The notes: a model not told the origin generated them from the sequence alone. A stretch of DNA of 64,000 bases from Polyangiaceae bacterium (GCA_025937895.1 JAICQL010000009.1:6896-70895); one strand, 5' to 3'. Numbered from the stretch's first letter, positions 5,837 to 16,286 are shown. Numbers and translations: made by a program.

Positions 5837-6037
5837 AGCTGGCGCTCGCCCGGCGCTGGCCCTGGCGCGCCGCCGGCACCACCCTGCGGTCGCAGTACGC
5901 AGACCGCGCGCCATCGCGAAAGTCAGCCGCGCGGAGTGCGGGCACACGGGTTGCACATGGCCTCCCCAACGTCAGCGCTCGTGGCCAAGCCGCGGGCCTG
6001 CCCATGCAAAGACCGCCAGGTCATCGGGGAGAAGCCA

Positions 6038-7108
<1,071 letters not shown>

Positions 7109-7271
7109 GCTCCGCCGTGCGCTGCCGGAGGTCCACTTGCCTGCTCTCGGGCAGGTGGCTCTCCGGCGGTCACCCGCCGGCCGGCAACGCGCCTGGCACG
7201 GGAAGCAGCGTTTTCAGATGGTCGAGGTGCGAGACAAGGAGCGGTGCTGCGTCTTGGGAGAAGGTGATCCG

Positions 7272-7583
7272 ATGCGCAACGAACGAGGGCAAGCGGTGGA
7301 GACAGTTGGCGGCTCGACTCGGCAGCCGCCAGTGGAGCGGCCCGGGCTCGAGCGGACCACCACCCGCCGCCATGCTCGCGTGCCCACCGAGTGTGCGCTG
7401 TGTGGTGCCGGCGACTTCGCTTCGGTGATCGAGGTGCTCTCCGGTCCCGTGTGCTTGTTGCACTGGGTGTGTCCGCCGCACGGCTGGTACCTGCTGCGCG
7501 AGGCGCGTCTGGAGCGCGGCGTGCCACTGCTGCGCGCGCGCTGCCCCGCCTGCATGGATCAGCTGTTCGCCCTGCCGCGCTGA
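7272..7583 (+). CDS. Small hypothetical protein with two CxxC pairs (zinc-ribbon-like)
   Basis: This is an internal ATG of ORF 7137..7583. GC3 is about 85% in this frame. It contains CALCG...RCPACM. It does not look like RecX. The start is uncertain. Confidence 0.4.
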   Translation: MRNERGQAVETVGGSTRQPPVERPGLERTTTRRHARVPTECALCGAGDFASVIEVLSGPVCLLHWVCPPHGWYLLREARLERGVPLLRARCPACMDQLFALPR

Positions 7584-7628
7584 GCCGCCTCAGGTCTTTG
7601 ACTCCGCTTCACGCCGCCTCACGCCGCT

Positions 7629-8876
7629 TCACGCGGCCGTGCGGCTCGTCCGCGGAGCGCTGGCGAGCCGCTCCAGCACCGTGGCCGCAGCGGCCACCGC
7701 GTCCGTCTCCCGAATCTGGCGCGACAGCTCCGCCAGGGTGCGCCGCGTCTCCAGGCTATCCAGCAAGCGCCGAGCCTGCTTGGCCAGCACATCGCCGGCC
7801 AGGCTCCGGCGCGCCACCACGGCTCCCGCCCCGAGCAGGGTGATGCGATGGCCGTTGTCGGGCTGATCAAACGCCTGCGGGCTGATGATCTGGGGGATGC
7901 CGGCCTCCAGCGCGCGCGCAGTGGTGCCGATGCCGCCGTGGTGCACGAGCAGCGCGGCGTGGGGCAAGAGCCGCTCCAACTCCAGGTATGGCTCGTGGAG
8001 CAGCGCTCCGCCAGCCGGGATGGTGCTGGGGTCAAAACACGGGCTCAGGAAGATGCCGGGCTTCTGCAGCAGCTTGCAGCAGCTGCGAGCGGCGTCGAAA
8101 AACTGCCGCACGTCTGCCACCCCGGTGCCCGGCGTGAACACCAGTGGCGCTCCGCGCTGGCGGATGAACTGCGCCACCCGCTCCGGCAGCTCTCCGCGCG
8201 GGGGCGTCAGCGGAAAGCCCACGCAGTCCAGCGACGCGGGCCAGTCCGACGCGCGCGGGCAGTACCACTCGGGAAACAGGCACAGCTGGTGAGTGACGAG
8301 GCCCTCGAGCACGCGCCAGCTGCCGTTCAGCGGCTGCAGCCCCAGCGTGCTGCGAAACTCGTTCATGCGGCGCAAAATGTACGGGTGCGTGTAGCGGCGC
8401 TCCAGCACTCCCGGCAAGACATGACGGCGGACGTATTTGCCCAGCCAGCCCTTCACCGCCTCGCTCAGCGGATAATACGGCGCCTCCAGTGAGCTGATGC
8501 GGAACGGCGCGAGGGTGAAGCGGACCAGAGGTAGGCCGTGGCGCTCCGCCATCAGGGTGGAGGCGGCGTAGCTCTCCGGGTTGACCAGCACCAGCTCCGT
8601 ACCGCGCGCGAGCTCTCGCTCGATGAAGTCGAACGTGGGCTGGTAGGAGGGGAACACGATGTTGCCGAAGTTCTCCTCCACCTCGACCAGGTTGTTGGTC
8701 TGGGCGGGCGCAATGGCGGTGAAAGGAACGCCCAGCTGCCGCGCCAGGCTCGCGGCGGGAGCGTTGCCCAGCACGTGACAGCTGTGGCCGCGCGCCTGCA
8801 GCTCGGAGGCCATGGCCAGCATCGGCAGCAGATCTCCACGAGTGCCGGTACCACTGAAGACGAACTTGGTGCCCAT
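7629..8876 (-). CDS. GT1-family (UDP-glycosyltransferase/MGT-like) glycosyltransferase
   Basis: 415 aa. The N-terminus reads FSGTGTRGDLLPMLAMASELQARGH. The C-terminal nucleotide-sugar signature is HHGGIGTTARALEAGIPQIISPQAFDQPDNG. Confidence 0.85.
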   Translation of the reverse strand: MGTKFVFSGTGTRGDLLPMLAMASELQARGHSCHVLGNAPAASLARQLGVPFTAIAPAQTNNLVEVEENFGNIVFPSYQPTFDFIERELARGTELVLVNPESYAASTLMAERHGLPLVRFTLAPFRISSLEAPYYPLSEAVKGWLGKYVRRHVLPGVLERRYTHPYILRRMNEFRSTLGLQPLNGSWRVLEGLVTHQLCLFPEWYCPRASDWPASLDCVGFPLTPPRGELPERVAQFIRQRGAPLVFTPGTGVADVRQFFDAARSCCKLLQKPGIFLSPCFDPSTIPAGGALLHEPYLELERLLPHAALLVHHGGIGTTARALEAGIPQIISPQAFDQPDNGHRITLLGAGAVVARRSLAGDVLAKQARRLLDSLETRRTLAELSRQIRETDAVAAAATVLERLASAPRTSRTAA

Positions 8877-8990
8877 GTTCGCTCATCGACGGACTGGCGC
8901 GACGGGTTTCCGGGAATCGGCGGCCCCATTGCTCTCGCTACATGGTGGGCCCGGAGCGAGCCTGCGGCGCGAGCGGCAGGGCCACGAGGG

Positions 8991-9034
8991 AACAAATAAA
9001 AAAAGGGCAGCCGCAGCATGCTGCTGCTCTGCCC
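8991..9034 (-). terminator. Rho-independent terminator or attenuator downstream of peptide A
   Basis: On the minus strand, GGGCAGAGCAGCAGCATGCTGCGGCTGCCC forms a stem (with an internal perfect palindrome GCAGCATGCTGC). It is followed directly by TTTTTTTTATTTG. An 8-nt A/T run is exceptional in this GC context. Confidence 0.65.
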
Positions 9035-9121
9035 ATCGCCCCCATCGCGGCCCGTGTAGGGCCCGGATCCGACGGGGGGTGCCGCGAGCCTGCGCGGGCC
9101 CCCGTCAGTGGTAGGGCCGCC

Positions 9122-9367
9122 TCAGTAGCCCACGCTGCGAGCGCGGCGCTTGACCTCGCCGAGAAGCATATTGGCAAAGCCATCTGCGATGGCCTTGGCG
9201 CCATCGACGAAGGCACCGCCCACGGCCTTGGCGCCATCGGCGATGGTTTCGCCCACGGCCTTGAACCCGTCGCCGATGGCGTCGACGATGCCGCCCAGAA
9301 AACCGCCCTGAACCGCGCTCAGCTCCGCATCTGAGAGCTCGCGACCGAGGTTGTCAAACTTGCTCAT
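9122..9367 (-). CDS. Double-glycine-leader bacteriocin-like peptide A (81 aa)
   Basis: MSKFDNLGRELSDAELSAVQGG | FLGGIVDAIGDGFKAVGETIADGAKAVGGAFVDGAKAIADGFANMLLGEVKRRARSVGY. The leader is a canonical LSxxELxxVxGG. AGAGGA lies upstream of the ATG. GC3 is high. The core has about 11-aa internal repeats (DGxKAxG). Confidence 0.8.
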   Translation of the reverse strand: MSKFDNLGRELSDAELSAVQGGFLGGIVDAIGDGFKAVGETIADGAKAVGGAFVDGAKAIADGFANMLLGEVKRRARSVGY

Positions 9368-9562
9368 GGTTCGTTCCTCTTTGTGTTGCTTGGTGAATCA
9401 AAAACACGCTGCCGCTGCTGGCGGCCCTGCGACGGCTCATGTCTATGCTCGTCGCCGTGTGCCGAGGTAGTCGGCCGCAGCCGCGCCGGCGTTGCGCGCT
9501 TTTGTCGTCGTTGGATGTGCGTCGCTGCCAGACGTGCGCTTCAGCAGTGCGCCGGAGCGTCT

Positions 9563-9576
9563 GCATCACGTGATGC
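9563..9576. promoter_or_regulatory. Perfect 14-bp palindrome GCATCACGTGATGC in the divergent A/B promoter region
   Basis: Read directly from the sequence. It shares the TGCATC/GATGCA half-site with repeats upstream of peptides C and D. Confidence 0.35.
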
Positions 9577-9702
9577 GACGGCGCTCCGAAATCTGCGGGA
9601 AGCACGAAACCTTTAACCAGCATCAACCGATGGGTGGCGCGTTGGCGCAGTGACGCCAAGTCGCCGGCGCAGTGCCGGCGCTCGTCAGCGAAAGAATCAG
9701 CG

Positions 9703-9867
9703 ATGAAGAACCACGATGCACAGCAGACCGAGTCCGAGCTCTCCGACGACGTGCTCGCGCACGTCACCGGCGGCGCAGCGGGCGTGGCCCAGCCCCAGGG
9801 CCCCATCTTCCCGGGTGTTGACTTCGACTACCCGAAGAAGCCGATCGACCCCCGCGACATTCGCTGA
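9703..9867 (+). CDS. Double-glycine-leader peptide B (54 aa), Pro-rich core
   Basis: This is the internal ATG (M24) of ORF 9634..9867: MKNHDAQQTESELSDDVLAHVTGG | AAGVAQPQGPIFPGVDFDYPKKPIDPRDIR. GC3 is high. Confidence 0.7.
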   Translation: MKNHDAQQTESELSDDVLAHVTGGAAGVAQPQGPIFPGVDFDYPKKPIDPRDIR

Positions 9868-10001
9868 GCTCCGCCGCGGCGCCACAGTAGCACCGTGAAA
9901 TACTGAGGCGCCGAGCTCACCAGCTGTGTCCATGAGGTGCTGATGCAGCGATGATCGTCCGAGTCACCTCCCGACGAAACGGGTTCAATGAACCTTCCAG
10001 G

Positions 10002-10047
10002 CCGGCGGCTGCTCCTCTAGCAGGGGCAGCCGCCGGCGCATTTTGTG
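10002..10047 (+). terminator. Hairpin with short T-tract between peptide B and the downstream genes (terminator or attenuator)
   Basis: An 11-bp perfect stem, CCGGCGGCTGC (10002-10012) paired with GCAGCCGCCGG (10026-10036). It is followed by CGCATTTTGTG. Confidence 0.5.
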
Positions 10048-10196
10048 CTTCTGCGCCGCCGCGGCCGTGAAAGTGCAGAGTGCGCCCGCTTTTGCGCGCG
10101 ACGTCCGGCGGCGATCGAGGCAACATCCCCGTCGAGCACGGCACGGGCAGCGCGGCGCAGGGGCGCGCTTCGATAGTCGCGCTCGAGCGGGGAGCA

Positions 10197-12104
10197 ATGA
10201 GCCACTTATCTAGACTGCGAGTCGTCTTTCATGGACGGTTCCAGGCGGACGTCTCGACCGTGAACAACGACGTTCGTCACTTCGACAATGCAGCGTTCAT
10301 CGACGCCTACCAGGAGCCGCAGGCAGGTGGCTCCCTGAACGGCTGGTGGAATCCGGACGGCACCGGCGCGTTTCGCCTCTCGGATTGCGTGGTAACCGAG
10401 CTGGGGCTGGAGGATGGCAGCGTCGTGCGGGATCCTGGCGTCATCCCGGTCGGCCTGGCCATCACCGATGCCAACGATCGGGTGAGCGGCAAGCTGGTCG
10501 ATCTCGATCCGCAGTGGCAGATGGCGTCCGCGATCTGGGGGCTCACGGTCCGGCTGGTGGCTGAAGACGGCACGGAGCTGCTGTCGGGGCGCTTCGAAGC
10601 CGCGCCATTTCGAGATCTCGCCTTCGGTCGCGCACCGGCTCCCGGCTCGGGCGGTGCGAGCGCCTGCTTCACCTCGGTGCTGAGCGAGCTCGTCTGGGCA
10701 CCGGAGCTGAGGAATCGGGCCCCGATCCTCGATCGGCTGCGGCAGAGCACGGCCGATGGCGTGCTGGCGATCCGCCTGATGACGTACGCCTATGCAGGCA
10801 GCTCGTCACGGCCCGGGTTCACCTTCGGCAGGATCAGCGGCATCATCGGACCTCAGGATCGCCTGCGCCCGCGCTCCTTCGTGCTGGGTCGTCGCCTCGT
10901 GCCGTCGCCTCAGACCATCGGCAGCGGGACCGCGAATTTCTGCGATGCCGTCATCGCCGCTGGCGGCGACGGCATCTTGTTCGATCTGGGCAACGCCGTG
11001 CCGCTCGATGCCAGCTTCGTGCCGGTCGACATGGGGCCACTGCAAGTCGTGGCGCTGGCCGATGATAGCGTGGCTCCGGGCGGGCCCGTGTCAGCGCAGC
11101 AGTACACTGCCATCGGCACCATCGAGGGCTACGCGAACGAAGGGTTCTTGACCCGCTCGGGCGGGATTGTCGACGTACGCGCAGCCATCCCCGCGATGGC
11201 CACTGTGCGCTCGCGGCCTATCGCCATCCTGATGGGAGAGGGCTCGGCCACGACGGTCGTGTGGCGCGAGACGAAGGAGGGCCGCCTGGTGCGAGCCGAG
11301 CAGTTCGTGCAGCGCCCGTACCCCGGGGACGTGGTGCGCGATCGATTGTGGGCGGCCCAGTGGGGAGAGCCGTTGCCGGGGGCGCAGCTCGCCTTGCAGC
11401 TGCTGCCGCCCGTTGCGGGCCTCGGCGGCAGTGGCCGGCCCACGCCAGACGTGCCGATTCCGCGCATCAATCAGCCGGCGAGCTCGCTCACCGTGCCGCA
11501 GACGGTGGTGACCAACGGCAATGGTTATGCGGAGCTCGCCATCCAGACCCGGGACCCGGAGTCACCCCGTGGCTACGTGGATGGCCAGATCTATCTGATC
11601 AGCTACAACTTCCCCGGCGAGCAGGCCATCGAGCAACCTTCCGTCGGGCTACCGCTCGATTGCTACGCGCTCCTGCTGTTCAGCGCGTTTCAGCCGAAGC
11701 ACGACCCGCCCAGCTGGGCTGACGATATCGCGCCCATCCTGCAGCAATATGCCAATCTCTACCCGATCATGAGCCGCTCGTTGTTCGATCTGGGCGACGA
11801 GAGTGCCGTAGCGCTGCACCAGAAGCTGCTGACGTTCGCCTTCGGGCTGCCCATGGACCACCCCAATCACATGCCCGTCACCCGCGATCTTTCACCCAGG
11901 AAGCGCGACGCCATTCTCACCTACCTCGCCAGCGTGAAGCCCCAGCCGGCGGCCATCGTCGCCGAGTTGCGCCCGGCCGCGGCGCATCGCAAGTCGGCAA
12001 GCTTGCTGAATGCCGGCGCCTCCGCGGAGACGGATGGCAAGCAGGCCTTCGCCGCATCGATCGCGGCTGCGCTCGAGGCCACTGCTCGGGAGACCACGCC
12101 ATGA
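10197..12104 (+). CDS. 635-aa protein of unknown function, no transmembrane segment or recognisable motif
   Basis: This is the internal ATG (M40) of ORF 10080..12104, preceded by GAGCGGGGAGCA. Codon 4 is TTA (10206-10208). The stop overlaps the next start (ATGA at 12101-12104). Confidence 0.8.
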   Translation: MSHLSRLRVVFHGRFQADVSTVNNDVRHFDNAAFIDAYQEPQAGGSLNGWWNPDGTGAFRLSDCVVTELGLEDGSVVRDPGVIPVGLAITDANDRVSGKLVDLDPQWQMASAIWGLTVRLVAEDGTELLSGRFEAAPFRDLAFGRAPAPGSGGASACFTSVLSELVWAPELRNRAPILDRLRQSTADGVLAIRLMTYAYAGSSSRPGFTFGRISGIIGPQDRLRPRSFVLGRRLVPSPQTIGSGTANFCDAVIAAGGDGILFDLGNAVPLDASFVPVDMGPLQVVALADDSVAPGGPVSAQQYTAIGTIEGYANEGFLTRSGGIVDVRAAIPAMATVRSRPIAILMGEGSATTVVWRETKEGRLVRAEQFVQRPYPGDVVRDRLWAAQWGEPLPGAQLALQLLPPVAGLGGSGRPTPDVPIPRINQPASSLTVPQTVVTNGNGYAELAIQTRDPESPRGYVDGQIYLISYNFPGEQAIEQPSVGLPLDCYALLLFSAFQPKHDPPSWADDIAPILQQYANLYPIMSRSLFDLGDESAVALHQKLLTFAFGLPMDHPNHMPVTRDLSPRKRDAILTYLASVKPQPAAIVAELRPAAAHRKSASLLNAGASAETDGKQAFAASIAAALEATARETTP

Positions 12105-13156
12105 ATGCGCTGCGCATGCCGGTCCGTCACGTACGAGCGGTGCGTGACGGAGACGTTGCGGAGCTGCGGGAGGCCTTGCAGAAGGCCATCGAGCTCGAGC
12201 ACGCTACCATCCCCACCTATCTCTACTCGCTGTTCAGCGTTGAGCTGGGCACGAACATCGAGGCCGCCGGCATCGTACGCTCGGTCGTCATCGAGGAGAT
12301 GTTGCACATGGCCATCGCGGCCAACGTGCTGAACGCCATCGGCGGCACGCCCATCATCGACAAGCCCGGCTTCATCCCCACCTATCCTGGGCCCGTGCCG
12401 CTCGACATCGATGGCCTGGTCGTGCACCTGCGCAAGCTGTCGCGGCAGCAGGTCGAGGACACGTTCCGCGCCATCGAGATGCCGGAGGATCCGCGCGATA
12501 TTCCCGTCGAGAGGCTGGCCGCGCCGGCAGCCGCCAAGATCGCTCAGACGTACGCGACCATCGGCCAGTTCTACCAGGCCATCATGGACAAGCTCCGAGA
12601 GCTGGGGGACGACATCTTCACCGGCGAGCCCGCGCGGCAGGTCACCAGTGAGCGATGGTTCGCCGAGGAGCTGGTCGCGGTCACGGGCCCGGAGGTCGCC
12701 TGCCAGCAGCTCCGGCTGATCGTGACCCAGGGCGAGGGCCCCATGGGCGGGCAGATCCCCGTGGAGCAGGGGCGAGCCGCACACTACTACCGGTTCGGCG
12801 AGATCGTTTACGGCGGGCGGCTCGTGGTCAAAGCCGACGGCAGCTACGTCTATGACACCAGCCAGCCCGTGACCCTCGACATGGACCACGTCTACGACTT
12901 GCTCGAAGACGCGCGGCTCTCCGACTACCCGGAGGGCACCAATGTCCGCCAGCTCGCCGAAGAGTGCAACCTCGCCTACAGCAACCTGCTGCGAGCGCTC
13001 CACCTCGCCTTCAACGGCCGTCCTGCACAGCTCGATGCCGCGATCGGCCTGATGTACGAGCTACGGCTGCTGTGCTCCCGCCTGGTTCAGATGGAGGCGC
13101 CAGGCCGCGGCGGCAAGCGCGCCGCGCCACCGTTCTCGTATATGTCTCACGACTGA
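12101..13156 (+). CDS. Ferritin-like protein with two E-x-x-H motifs
   Basis: 351 aa. The two E-x-x-H motifs are in helix-like contexts: KAIELEHATIPTYLYSLFS and VVIEEMLHMAIAANVLNAIGG. It is translationally coupled to the upstream gene. Confidence 0.85.
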   Translation: MNALRMPVRHVRAVRDGDVAELREALQKAIELEHATIPTYLYSLFSVELGTNIEAAGIVRSVVIEEMLHMAIAANVLNAIGGTPIIDKPGFIPTYPGPVPLDIDGLVVHLRKLSRQQVEDTFRAIEMPEDPRDIPVERLAAPAAAKIAQTYATIGQFYQAIMDKLRELGDDIFTGEPARQVTSERWFAEELVAVTGPEVACQQLRLIVTQGEGPMGGQIPVEQGRAAHYYRFGEIVYGGRLVVKADGSYVYDTSQPVTLDMDHVYDLLEDARLSDYPEGTNVRQLAEECNLAYSNLLRALHLAFNGRPAQLDAAIGLMYELRLLCSRLVQMEAPGRGGKRAAPPFSYMSHD

Positions 13157-13448
13157 CGCCGGGCGCACCGGCAGCTCGCCAGCGGCGTACCCGCTGGCGG
13201 CGCACCACTGGCGGCATTTCGTATCTTCAGTACGCAACCACTCGTCACGAGCGGACGACACGGGGGGAGGCGAGGGGGGCGGCTTCGTGGCGAAGGCCTC
13301 GGAGCGGTGCTGGGCATGCTCTGCGGTGCAGAAAGCTGGAGAGCGCTGGCCTCCCAGGCGAGGGCACGCCATGCCCAGGGGGGCGGCAGGCGTTGAGCTT
13401 TGGCTGGCAGCAGCGGCGGTATCGCTGAACCCTCAACGATCCCGCCAG

Positions 13449-13531
13449 TAGCCCCTGCCGGGGTCGAACCGGCACGCCTGTTAGGGCGAGGGATTTTAAA
13501 TCCCCTGCGTCTGCCATTCCGCCAAGGGGCC
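13449..13531 (-). tRNA. tRNA-Leu, anticodon UAA
   Basis: The minus strand reads GGCCCCUUGGCGGAAUGGCAGACGCAGGGGAUUUAAAAUCCCUCGCCCUAACAGGCGUGCCGGUUCGACCCCGGCAGGGGCUA. It has an anticodon loop UUUAAAA, a long variable arm, a GUUCGAC T-loop and an A73 discriminator. CCA is not encoded. It closely resembles E. coli tRNA-Leu(UAA). Confidence 0.85.
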
Positions 13532-13680
13532 AGAGCGCAGCACTATCCCAGCGTTGGCGGCGAGTCCAGCGCCTGCAGGCGGCTGCGCTGCAGCCCCGGG
13601 CCCGGGAGATTCCGCTTGCCTTTGCGCGGCAGCCCGAGCGCGTGCGGGCAGGGTGGGCGCGGCGGAAGCCGCCAGTGCGC

Positions 13681-13710
13681 CGGCGTCTCGCGGCGTCTCG
13701 CGGCGTCTCG
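13681..13710. repeat. Perfect tandem repeat, 3 x 10 bp (CGGCGTCTCG)
   Basis: Read directly. It lies in the 454-bp region between tRNA-Leu and peptide C. Confidence 0.9.
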
Positions 13711-13740
13711 GGCGTGGGCCGCACTGTGTCGCAGACGCGC

Positions 13741-13782
13741 GCGACGGGCTGCATGCTCGGCGCGACGCGCTGCATGCTCGGC
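13741..13782. repeat. Tandem repeat, 2 x 21 bp (GCGACGSGCTGCATGCTCGGC)
   Basis: Read directly. There is one mismatch between the copies. Confidence 0.9.
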
Positions 13783-13985
13783 GACAGTGAAGCGAGCGAG
13801 CGCCCTGCACCGCTGGTAGGAGTTCTGTGCAGCGCGCTGTTCGCGGCGCGCTGGACGGCGCGGCTCGCCGCCTGCCAGGGGAGCTGTTGCATCGTGTTTT
13901 TGCGCAACTCCAGCGAGCGATGGCCCGACTGGAGTCGTACATGGGCGGCAATGGAGTTCGCCCGCCAACGAGGAAGAACGATCAC

Positions 13986-14213
13986 ATGAACAACAACGAA
14001 TTTGTGGGCGTGGAGCTGTCGGATGCAGAGCTGGCGTCGGTCCAGGGTGGCGGTTTCTTCGGCGACGTGTGGGACGGCATCAAGAAGGGCGCCAACTGGG
14101 TGAAGAACGCGGCGAAGGACGCCTACGAGTGGGCCACGGGCGATGGCAAGGGCATCGTGAGCGCGGGCGTGGCCATCGGCACTGCGATCTTCGCGATCGA
14201 GCGCAAGTACTGA
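13986..14213 (+). CDS. Double-glycine-leader bacteriocin-like peptide C (75 aa)
   Basis: This is the internal ATG (M54) of ORF 13827..14213, with AGGAAG upstream: MNNNEFVGVELSDAELASVQGG | GFFGDVWDGIKKGANWVKNAAKDAYEWATGDGKGIVSAGVAIGTAIFAIERKY. It is a paralog of peptide D. Confidence 0.8.
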   Translation: MNNNEFVGVELSDAELASVQGGGFFGDVWDGIKKGANWVKNAAKDAYEWATGDGKGIVSAGVAIGTAIFAIERKY

Positions 14214-14552
14214 AGACGAACCCCGAACGAGGGACACTGCTCCAGTGCGAGCTGGAGCTCGAAAAACCCATCGCTGGTGGCGAACCATCAATGAAATACG
14301 GCACGGAACAGTCGCCCCTCTCGAGCAGGGGCGGCTGTTGCCTCGGGCCAGCAGCGTGGTGAAGCACAGGGCTCGAGCGGGTAGCTCGAGCACGTGGCCC
14401 GACCATGGTGAGCAGCAGGACGAAGCCCCCGTGATTGCCTGAATGTGGCGATCATCGTGGGGCTTTGGAGCGTTTGTCATTCCGCGGTGTCGCCGCCGTG
14501 TCTCCGGCACTCGGTGGTGGCGCGAGTGGTGATGCGCGATGCGCGGGCTCTG

Positions 14553-14605
14553 GTGTTGCATCGCCATCTGGAGCGCGGGCAATGATGCAATGCTAGATGC
14601 AACAC
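14553..14605. promoter_or_regulatory. 10-bp perfect inverted repeat GTGTTGCATC...GATGCAACAC upstream of peptide D
   Basis: The arms are at 14553-14562 and 14596-14605. An extra GATGCAAT half-site lies between them. The element ends 79 bp upstream of the peptide D ATG. Confidence 0.35.
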
Positions 14606-14683
14606 GAAACTGGATCGCTCGCTGCGCCGATAGGCCCGTACCTGGCGGCACTGGGTCGCCGGCGAACGAGGAAGAAGAGCACA

Positions 14684-14938
14684 ATGAGCAACAACAACGG
14701 CTTTGAGCAGGTGGGGATCGAGTTGTCTGAGTCCGAGCTGGCGCTGATCCATGGCGGCGGCTTCTTCGGCGATGTCTGGGATGGCATCAAGAAGGGCGCA
14801 AACTGGGTGAAGAATGCCGCGGAGGACGCCTACGATTGGGCCACGAGCGACACCGGCAAGAAGGTGCTCACCGGCGCAGCCGTGGTGATCGGTGCCATCT
14901 TCGGCGGCAGCTCGGGCAGCAAGAAGAGCAGCTACTGA
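14684..14938 (+). CDS. Double-glycine-leader bacteriocin-like peptide D (84 aa)
   Basis: This is the internal ATG (M30) of ORF 14597..14938, with AGGAAGAAG upstream: MSNNNGFEQVGIELSESELALIHGG | GFFGDVWDGIKKGANWVKNAAEDAYDWATSDTGKKVLTGAAVVIGAIFGGSSGSKKSSY. Confidence 0.8.
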   Translation: MSNNNGFEQVGIELSESELALIHGGGFFGDVWDGIKKGANWVKNAAEDAYDWATSDTGKKVLTGAAVVIGAIFGGSSGSKKSSY

Positions 14939-15090
14939 GCGCCGTCTGGCTCGGCACGAGTCGGCATACCGCTGCGCGGCACAGGCATCCATGTCGCGAC
15001 CCGGCCATTACCTTGGGGCAAGACAGTCGCCCTCCTGGTTCGCACGTTTTCGCCGGTGCGCTCTTCTCTGGAGCGCACCAGCGCTTCGCG

Positions 15091-15170
15091 CAGCGGGGCG
15101 CGGCTGTCACGCGATAGGATAAACAGCGGTGCGGCTGTCACGCGACGGGGAAACAGCGGGTGGCTGCCAC
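15091..15170. repeat. Roughly 31-bp tandem repeat, about 2.5 copies (CAGCGGnGCGGCTGTCACGCGAnnGGnAAA)
   Basis: Read directly. It lies about 130 nt beyond the 3' end of tRNA-Cys. Confidence 0.7.
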
Positions 15171-15302
15171 CGGCTCGCCCGTGAGGCCTGTCGCGTCTGA
15201 GGCCGGGTCCCCACCGGCGTCGCCTTCCAAGGCACCCTCGAGACCTGCGCGCTGCTCGCCGCTCCAGATCAGCATCAGCATCCGGGAGCGACGGGCAGAC
15301 TC

Positions 15303-15377
15303 TGGAGGCGAGGACCGGATTCGAACCGGCGTATGGCGGTTTTGCAAACCGCTGCCTAACCACTTGGCTACCTCGCC
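15303..15377 (-). tRNA. tRNA-Cys, anticodon GCA
   Basis: The minus strand reads GGCGAGGUAGCCAAGUGGUUAGGCAGCGGUUUGCAAAACCGCCAUACGCCGGUUCGAAUCCGGUCCUCGCCUCCA. It folds as a cloverleaf, has a GCA anticodon, and encodes CCA. Confidence 0.9.
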
Positions 15378-15431
15378 GAGGCCGGGCAGGTACTTACACC
15401 AAGCCTCCGGCAGAGAAAAGCCATCTCTCGC

Positions 15432-16286
15432 CTACTTGCGGCCGCGCGGATCGGGCGTGTTTTTGCCGTGGGTCACGTAGCTGAGGATCACGTCGTCCAG
15501 CGATTCCTGTGGGGCGGCGCCAAAAATGGACTCGGCACTGGGCTTTGCTTCCAGCACGGCCGAGGGCCTGCCGAGCGAGCGCCTTTGCTTGGGCGCGCCG
15601 GAGCGGCTGCGCTTCTTCCCGCCGTCTGGCGGGCGCGACGGGCGGGTGCCACGACCGGCAGGGGGGCGGCTGGGGCGCGCCTGCGCGGGCGGCGTGGAGG
15701 GCCTGCGCGCGGCTTGCCGCGATGAGGGTGGCTCCGCTGAAGACGCCGGCTGCGCAGAGGAGGGCGGCTGCGCGCGAGATAGCGGCTCAGCGTCCGGCTC
15801 GCGCCGTTCGCCGCCGGCTGCCATTGCCGTGGCCTCGGCGACGGCCGCCGATGACACGGCCGGCGACGACACGGCCGCAGACGACAGCCGCCCGGATACG
15901 CTGGAGGACTGCGCGCGCTGCACGGCGTGGGTACCCGTCTGGCGCGGCTCCGCCAGCTCTTCCGCGGCAGAGGGCACCTCGCTGCGCAGGCTGTCGATGG
16001 TCGCATCGAGACGGCCGTCACGCAGGTCGATGGCCATGGCGCGATGCTGCTCGCGCATCATGCGATGGATCATCGCCGGGCGATCGGGGTGATCCACATA
16101 CTCCGAGTAGTCCGTGCGCAGGCTCTTGATCACCCGGCCACCGTCGGCGAACAGATGAGTGATGATGTGCGGTCGGGTGACGCCCGAGTCCTCGGTCTGG
16201 ATGTGGAAGCGCATCCCGCGGTAGCGGACGTTGTTGTTGAACCCGACGAGCGGTGGCGGCGTGCTCTGCACTTTGTTCCTTGGCAC
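15432..16286 (-). CDS. Conserved-looking hypothetical protein: structured N-terminal domain of about 100 aa plus a Ser/Pro/Ala/Arg-rich tail
   Basis: 284 aa: MPRNKVQSTPPPLVGFNNNVRYRGMRFHIQTEDSGVTRPHIITHLFADGGRVIKS... It begins 5 nt after the stop of the upstream signalling gene. Confidence 0.7.
   Translation of the reverse strand: MPRNKVQSTPPPLVGFNNNVRYRGMRFHIQTEDSGVTRPHIITHLFADGGRVIKSLRTDYSEYVDHPDRPAMIHRMMREQHRAMAIDLRDGRLDATIDSLRSEVPSAAEELAEPRQTGTHAVQRAQSSSVSGRLSSAAVSSPAVSSAAVAEATAMAAGGERREPDAEPLSRAQPPSSAQPASSAEPPSSRQAARRPSTPPAQARPSRPPAGRGTRPSRPPDGGKKRSRSGAPKQRRSLGRPSAVLEAKPSAESIFGAAPQESLDDVILSYVTHGKNTPDPRGRK

Follow-up and report, generated by a model that had tools for sequence, protein, structure and literature searches.

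The minus strand of a 64,000-nucleotide stretch of a Polyangiaceae metagenome-assembled genome (GCA_025937895.1 JAICQL010000009.1:6896-70895; the window) carries, one after the other, the gene of a small precursor with a double-glycine (GG) leader (peptide A, 9367->9122), a hairpin followed by a T-run, and the gene of a GT1 glycosyltransferase (GT, 8876->7629). This order had been described in an initial annotation of the same DNA, and all its elements are present, the run being read here as T7. We lean towards the view that the peptide A gene and the GT gene downstream of it are a peptide-modification module of two genes, in which the GT would glycosylate the GG-leader peptide before its export, possibly at the C-terminal tyrosine. 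The evidence comes from sequence comparison, namely the enrichment of GG-leader peptides beside GTs of this clade, the conservation of the module in at least one other lineage and the shared C-terminal tyrosine of the peptides.

GG-leader peptides beside the glycosyltransferase clade

Loci were selected by GT similarity alone (28 ingroup loci, 317 kb) and a strict double-glycine-leader pattern was applied to them, which retrieved 20 peptides in 17 of the 28 loci. All of these peptides, except those named C and D in the window, are encoded at 1.6 kb or less from a GT, several at only 100-350 nt, and five (in the window, L058, L060, L062 and L066) on the same strand at 100-250 nt; the peptide of L153 is one extra case, missed by the strict pattern. 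Of the 11 loci without a strict match, six come from contigs of less than 2.6 kb and one, L028, is cut off by the end of its contig. Genome-wide, the pattern has 15 matches in 8.57 Mb, four of which are in GT loci; outside these there are ~11 matches per 8.5 Mb, about 1.3 per Mb. The enrichment of GG-leader peptides beside the GT clade is ~50-fold, and it involves at least 8 unrelated families of peptide cores. A reversed-sequence control of the pattern gave no matches, and neither did ~60 loci from other phyla that contain GT homologues of ~30% identity. Co-occurrence of GT1 genes and such peptides in other genomes, a check proposed in the initial annotation, was in this way observed at many independent loci.

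The larger GT clusters also encode C39-peptidase ATP-binding cassette (ABC) exporters, HlyD, CPBP/Rce1-like proteins, several GT paralogues, M16 peptidase, DUF6492, an N-terminal-twitch radical S-adenosylmethionine (SAM) protein (NF033640) and an unknown helical protein of ~117 aa. The GG-leader peptide and the GT are what the loci have in common and are the sole content of the minimal modules, where nothing besides the peptide was found as a possible glycosylation target. A functional link between the GT clade and GG-leader peptides is well supported by these gene neighbourhoods.

Several of these clusters have features of their own. The GTs most closely related to that of the window are found in a conserved cluster (metagenome contigs L046/L047, and L017, L018 and L058), composed of a GG-leader peptide ending in Ser/Gly-Tyr, an M16 peptidase of ~940 aa, a 126-aa membrane protein, the GT, the 117-aa unknown helical protein, DUF6492, the NF033640 radical SAM protein, closer to nucleotide/sugar-acting enzymes than to maturases of peptides that are ribosomally made and modified after translation (RiPPs), and a second GT. 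L027 (G000 contig C107:36000-51178), in the same genome, is a large cluster that comprises four GT1 paralogues together with a GG-leader peptide (9011-9460) whose core is rich in Ser/Thr/Pro, a CPBP/Rce1-like protein, a member of the unknown family 'c2', an AraC regulator, an FHA-sigma54 activator and, at the contig end, HlyD; its orthologous clusters in two sister species extend to a C39-ABC exporter. In L029 (G000 contig C335, 4598-8137), a GT paralogue is located downstream of a gene whose 714-aa product fuses protein-L-isoaspartate O-methyltransferase (PCMT) with an erythromycin-esterase-like domain, and it adjoins an M20 peptidase, with no GG peptide. PCMT-type enzymes act on peptides, and the L029 genes may thus be another peptide-tailoring set. 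At least 10 further GG-leader peptides, with no GT near, are encoded in G000 contigs C20, C187, C251, C75, C77 and C163, examples being Gly/Asn-rich WGGG.. peptides beside a C39 exporter (C20) and Cys/His/Arg-rich YCHRRR.. peptides.

Conservation of the peptide–terminator–glycosyltransferase module

An exhaustive HMMER search retrieved four small homologues of peptide A, with ~60% identity or below; P0125, P0126 and P0122, at 60% identity, come from other metagenomes. In L153, the gene of P0125 is followed by both of the hairpins described below and, 263 nt downstream, by a GT 79% identical to that of the window, so that one other lineage at least has the same layout. The P0002 contig encodes a GT 83% identical, adjoined by recA, and has an 89-aa gene on the same strand 246 nt upstream, whose sequence was unread; P0126, an 89-aa homologue of peptide A ending in GAY, is on a separate contig from the same sample. 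The gene beside the P0002 GT probably encodes a peptide A homologue, with P0126 as its counterpart, and the P0002 contig is probably a second instance of the module. In L152, P0122 and the hairpins are conserved and the contig stops 288 nt downstream.

Also in L152 (3100-3350, 476-1054), a sequence similar to the tRNA-Leu gene of the window is found at a distance of a few hundred bases from the P0122 gene, with a resolvase gene near. This arrangement suggests mobility of the peptide and its terminator, as one unit, among accessory sites linked to tRNA genes.

The C-terminal tyrosine as candidate acceptor

All readable peptides neighbouring GTs of the window subclade (6/6) end in [GS]Y, with cores that are not alignable: VGY in the window, YGY in L153, GSY/DSY in L046/L047, AGY in L017, TGY in L018 and GGY in L158. 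L158 was fetched after the pattern had been noticed, and the unread 89-aa neighbour of the P0002 GT is outside the count. In the family of peptide A itself, Tyr is the last residue of the members linked to a GT, and those lacking a GT terminate in Phe or Trp. The core of peptide A had been noted to contain Ser, Thr and Tyr as possible acceptors, and we indeed found Thr41, Ser78 and Tyr81 among its hydroxyl residues; only Tyr81 is conserved among the GT-linked homologues.

The closest solved relatives of the GT over its full length are the vancomycin glycosyltransferases GtfA, GtfD and GtfB (profile E ~1e-25; top matches in Foldseek). The groups that these enzymes glycosylate are hydroxyls of phenolic or benzylic type, or sugars, carried by a peptide aglycone. 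Given this relationship, O-glycosylation of Tyr seems a reasonable hypothesis. Taken together, the conservation of the module and the Tyr tail support the proposed link between peptide A and the GT.

Peptides C and D (window 13983-14213 and 14684-14938, plus strand), whose genes are 5-6 kb away from that of the GT, likewise have Tyr as their last residue (..ERKY and ..KSSY); they may be further substrates, or a terminal Tyr may be general to such peptides.

Peptide A

The peptide A gene (9122-9367, minus strand) encodes a precursor of 81 aa and has a strong Shine-Dalgarno sequence, AAAGAGGAA, read directly in the DNA 6 nt 5' of the ATG (9382-9374, minus strand), of which GAGGAA is conserved in L153 and L152. 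The gene is real: homologues of 60% identity exist in other metagenomes and, in the alignments, their differences in the leader region are mostly synonymous. The leader of 22 aa (9367-9302, minus strand), ending in ELSDAELSAVQGG, fits the class II type pattern L-S-x-x-E-L-x-x-[IV]-x-G-G, conserved in the homologues, and the NCBIfam model of lactococcin G-beta/enterocin 1071B gives a weak match over it (E = 0.0036, below the cut-off). The peptides of related clusters have a possible extra N-terminal leader box (I/L-N-D-I/L), which we considered for peptide A and set aside, as its leader could not be clearly separated from the ordinary class II pattern.

The core of 59 aa (9301-9125, minus strand) has no Cys and is composed of three 11-residue amphipathic repeats, with the pattern G-[FA]-K-A-[VI]-[GA]-x-x-[IF]-[AV]-D, and a basic tail, KRRARSVGY; the product would be amphipathic and probably membrane-active. 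In a representative search, the 11-residue repeat also gave multi-stretch matches to huge proteins, of up to 2,569 aa. The next gene downstream of peptide A is the GT, and no conventional immunity gene is found there.

The glycosyltransferase

The GT gene (7629-8876, minus strand) encodes a cytoplasmic GT1/GT-B glycosyltransferase of 415 aa. Its product matches the Pfam families PF06722, EryCIII-like_C (2e-16, 60.6 bits; cut-off 31.7), and, in the N-terminal domain, PF03033, Glyco_transf_28 (3e-07, 31.0 bits; cut-off 26.2), and Glycos_transf_2 (GT2) is absent among its Pfam and NCBIfam matches. The AlphaFold2 model (predicted local distance difference test 93.5, predicted template modelling (TM) score 0.91) has two Rossmann-like domains, that is, a GT-B fold, and its Foldseek matches are GtfD, GtfB, GtfA, OleD and CalG (TM 0.7-0.8, E ~1e-22). 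The motifs GTRGD, HHGGIGTT and DQPDN are intact, and residues G11, T12, G14, D15, H312, G314, G315, G317, T318, D337, Q338, D340 and N341 do not vary across 29 family members, of which the window GT is one.

In a maximum-likelihood tree the window GT is placed inside a clade of six members with 98% support. It has 8 matches within its own genome, and the clade is present at 8–16 copies per genome. Outside that genome, strong homologues were limited to three further species of its genus, with none in ~290 other sampled genomes of the family (0/~290). Metagenomes from soil and rhizosphere are rich in members of the GT family, with at least 558 metagenomic homologues; on the sequences compared, the clade is almost confined to one Polyangiaceae genus and soil metagenomes. 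A scan of genome contigs with the window GT alone gave 8 loci, 7 of which are peptide-free homologues of ~30% identity from other phyla.

Hairpins, terminator and transcription

A first GC-rich stem-loop, predicted by RNA folding, is located directly 3' of the peptide A stop codon (9069-9108, minus strand) and has an equivalent in L153 and L152; it is probably an mRNA-stabilising structure. It is followed by an intrinsic terminator (8994-9034, minus strand), formed by an interrupted 12-bp GC-rich stem (9034-9005; free energy of -21.5 kcal/mol, z = -2.66), T7 (9004-8998) and ATTT. The entire 146-nt 3' region of the peptide A gene has a fold z of -4.96, and T7 runs number 2 in the 64-kb window versus 0.11 expected. 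The stems of the terminator are kept in L153 and L152 and the loop varies. A strong hairpin 3' of the precursor gene is also present in L062, L017, L047, L019 and L027, and this recurrence fits, by analogy, the usual order of a precursor gene, an attenuating structure and enzyme genes.

A spacer of 117 nt (8877-8993, minus strand) separates the terminator tail from the start codon of the GT; it is partly conserved with L153, including GTCGATG directly 5' of the GT ATG. A promoter specific to the GT, if any, would be located in this spacer; a sigma-70 promoter scan found no site near the peptide A or GT genes, spacer included, and reading by eye of the spacer and the peptide A upstream region revealed no sigma-54 boxes. 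An Rfam scan of 7000-15500 returned two tRNAs and chance-level matches, with no known riboswitch or attenuator.

The RNA evidence consists of four exact 151-nt unitigs from two putative metatranscriptome runs, too thin to decide on read-through and possibly including DNA carry-over. Two unitigs cover the peptide A gene (9094-9244 and 9266-9416; run X19) and two are within 8051-8335 of the GT (run X20).

Proposed mechanism and alternative explanations

In the mechanism that we propose, peptide A would be made as an 81-aa prepeptide with a double-glycine leader of class-II-bacteriocin type, and most of its mRNA would end at the conserved hairpin and U-tract, from which an excess of precursor over enzyme would follow; the GT mRNA would arise by read-through, or else start at a weak promoter within the spacer. 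The cytoplasmic GT-B enzyme, with a nucleoside diphosphate (NDP)-sugar as donor, would O-glycosylate the prepeptide, the phenol of Tyr81 being the best candidate site, and a C39-peptidase ABC exporter, one of four whose genes are in other parts of the genome, would cut after Gly-Gly and secrete the glycopeptide, an amphipathic and probably membrane-active product.

Several observations weigh against this mechanism. The RNA unitigs of peptide A and the GT come from separate runs and, at minimal coverage, none extends across 8976-9079. Peptide A may be a self-contained transcription unit, since the strong T7 terminator is kept in L152, with unrelated DNA downstream. The leader of peptide A is short and of the ordinary class II type, whereas most peptides of multi-GT clusters have longer leaders and Ser/Thr after GG. 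Distant peptide A homologues (41-44% identity; L031, L156 and L154) have no nearby GT, the Tyr correlation among the relatives of peptide A may go back to one evolutionary event, no peptide was detected in L157, L024 and L065, the C335 GT paralogue is found without a peptide, beside the PCMT-erythromycin-esterase fusion, and there is no exporter, immunity or sugar-nucleotide gene in the window. Among these, the strong terminator, the ordinary short leader and the GT-less homologues weaken the proposal. The coupling of a GT1 to a GG-leader peptide, as envisaged in the initial annotation, is partly supported by the co-occurrence seen in L153, probably in the P0002 contig, and in the clusters with GG-leader peptides and C39 exporters; the GT-less homologues and C335 speak against a strict pairing.

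The GT could instead be unrelated to peptide A and act on a lipid, a sterol, a surfactant precursor or a xenobiotic, with peptide A being a self-contained, unmodified class-II-type bacteriocin and the two genes merely sharing an accessory island beside recA. The conserved terminator between the genes, the GT-less peptide A homologues and the peptide-less C335 paralogue are in line with this possibility, as are the Joint Genome Institute (JGI) names of the homologues (rhamnosyltransferase subunit B or YjiC-type), the macrolide/MGT-type GTs that are the best partial NCBIfam matches and the presence of a sterol glucosyltransferase among the best structural matches. We nevertheless regard it as unlikely, if deserving serious attention, in view of the ~50-fold enrichment of GG-leader peptides, spanning at least 8 core families and frequently on one strand with the GT, 100-350 nt away, of the C39 exporters and CPBP proteins within the same clusters, and of the Tyr-tail correlation across the subclade. 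Moreover, the module is kept at 79-83% GT identity though the peptide is down to 60%, and the ~30%-identity homologues of other phyla, possibly small-molecule GTs, are without peptides.

It is improbable that the GT is a self-protection enzyme, inactivating intracellular peptide by glycosylation or modifying an envelope target of the producer. Enzymes of the OleI/OleD type inactivate macrolides by glycosylation, and the GT has partial NCBIfam similarity to self-immunity macrolide GTs (OleI, Mgt and Rgt) and occupies the usual slot of the immunity gene of class II operons, with no conventional immunity gene after peptide A. The multi-GT clusters, however, contain 3-4 GTs of different subclades, a nucleotide/sugar-type radical SAM protein and DUF6492, and for this reason look like stepwise biosynthesis; in addition, they already encode putative immunity proteins of the CPBP/Abi type. 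A role of peptide A as a secreted pheromone that regulates its neighbours, GT included, without being a substrate, seems to us very improbable. GG-leader peptides do include pheromones, as in ComC/BlpC-type systems, and sigma-54 activators or response regulators are present in two related clusters (L027 and L062), but no histidine kinase/response regulator pair is found beside peptide A, its 59-aa core with amphipathic repeats resembles a bacteriocin rather than a pheromone, and the peptide cores beside GTs are highly diverse.

Surroundings of the module

The neighbours of the module in the window are recA (5936-7108, plus strand), three further GG-leader peptide genes, two tRNAs, a gene for a 674-aa protein and a ferritin-like gene. 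The contig of the window has no C39 exporter gene, and the four full-length ones of this genome are located outside it. A small open reading frame (7137-7583, plus strand) with two Cys-x-x-Cys pairs, not RecX-like by eye, was observed in the interval from recA to the stop codon of the GT; the same slot is occupied by a 98-aa gene in the contig of the GT orthologue with 83% identity.

Significance and comparison with known systems

Glycosylation of ribosomal peptides is rare and, for leader-bearing linear peptides, is almost only known from the GT2-type glycocin enzymes of Bacillota (PMC11912497). Beyond the window, we tentatively put forward, at a little below an even chance, an undescribed class of Polyangiaceae ribosomal glycopeptides, in which Gtf-like GT1 enzymes of GT-B fold modify GG-leader peptides before C39 export. 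As part of this tentative proposal, the target of the window subclade would be the phenol of the C-terminal Gly/Ser-Tyr, with the window module as the smallest member of the class, and the 3-4 GTs, radical SAM protein and DUF6492 of the larger clusters may build oligosaccharides on Ser/Thr/Pro-rich cores. If true, a 'glycocin-like' solution would have evolved a second time and independently, this one being the first from myxobacteria and possibly new chemistry on ribosomal peptides, namely GT1-type O-glycosylation of Tyr. A GT-B family diversified, in soil myxobacteria, together with dozens of different GG-leader peptides would likewise be a new enzyme family for peptide glyco-engineering, and the combination of GT clade, GG leader and [GS]Y tail would give a genome-mining handle on a natural-product-rich group that is uncultured. 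The window module, having just two genes, is the simplest test system for the idea.

Glycocins (sublancin/SunS, glycocin F/GccA, thurandacin/ThuS and pallidocin) share with the module a GG-type leader and a GT encoded beside the precursor. Their exporter is a C39-peptidase ABC transporter; for the module, the candidate C39 genes are the four outside the contig of the window, and related GT clusters carry such genes in cis. As stated in the initial annotation, known glycocins use GT2 enzymes: their GT2/GT-A glycosyltransferases S- or O-glycosylate Cys, Ser or Thr in a Cys-rich, disulfide-stapled helix-loop-helix (PMC11912497). The enzyme described here is, in contrast, a GT1/GT-B rather than a SunS-type GT2, peptide A is Cys-free, so that there is no glycocin-type nested-disulfide core, a thiol-disulfide oxidoreductase is absent, and the host is a myxobacterium, not a member of Bacillota.

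Unmodified class II (IIb/IId) bacteriocins, such as lactococcin G/enterocin 1071, have the same GG leader and a small, Gly/Ala-rich amphipathic core, but near peptide A there is no adjacent immunity gene, no gene for a small membrane protein and no ABC/HlyD or dedicated exporter, and a conserved GT follows it. RhlB, the rhamnolipid rhamnosyltransferase 1 chain B, is also a GT1 and gives its name to the homologues in the automatic KEGG Orthology assignment of JGI; the genomic partners here are instead peptides and exporters, the RhlB equivalog model is not matched, and no RhlA-type or lipid-synthesis partner was found in the window module or the mapped related loci, the whole genome not having been searched for RhlA. 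A mycofactocin- or PQQ-like pathway (MftA/B/C/F) was considered in view of the Tyr tail and of the M16 peptidase and radical SAM protein of related clusters, and was rejected, as peptide A ends in Gly-Tyr, not Val-Tyr, the enzyme is a GT1, not the GT2 MftF, and the radical SAM protein of the related clusters is the N-terminal-twitch NF033640, not MftC, with no homologue in this genome.

In full-text literature we found neither a GT1 enzyme linked to GG-leader peptides nor a description of DUF6492. The novelty suggested in the initial annotation for a GT1 acting on a GG-leader peptide is in agreement with this, but does not extend to RiPPs in general, since the rhamnosyltransferases of thiopeptides are GT1 enzymes acting on RiPPs (PMC10832541). 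The thiopeptide enzymes SrGT822, Af-GT3 and PerS4 are, like the one proposed here, GT1/GT-B enzymes acting on an aromatic hydroxyl of a RiPP (PMC10832541; PMC11406533); they differ in that they modify the hydroxypyridine of the mature macrocycle, not a linear GG-leader peptide, and are actinobacterial, with no C39 context. Cacaoidin is a RiPP with sugars on a tyrosine phenol (PMC8068269), but its proposed GTs are GT2 and GT4, and it is a lanthidin with another leader and maturation. The vancomycin enzymes GtfB, GtfD and GtfA (PDB 1iir, 1rrv and 1pn3/3h4i) have only ~22% identity to the window GT, and act, in actinomycete non-ribosomal peptide synthetase clusters, on a cross-linked non-ribosomal heptapeptide; nevertheless, they share with it the N-terminal G-[ST]-R-G-D and the C-terminal HHGG.GT, and their substrate is likewise a peptide scaffold with Tyr-like phenolic or benzylic hydroxyls.

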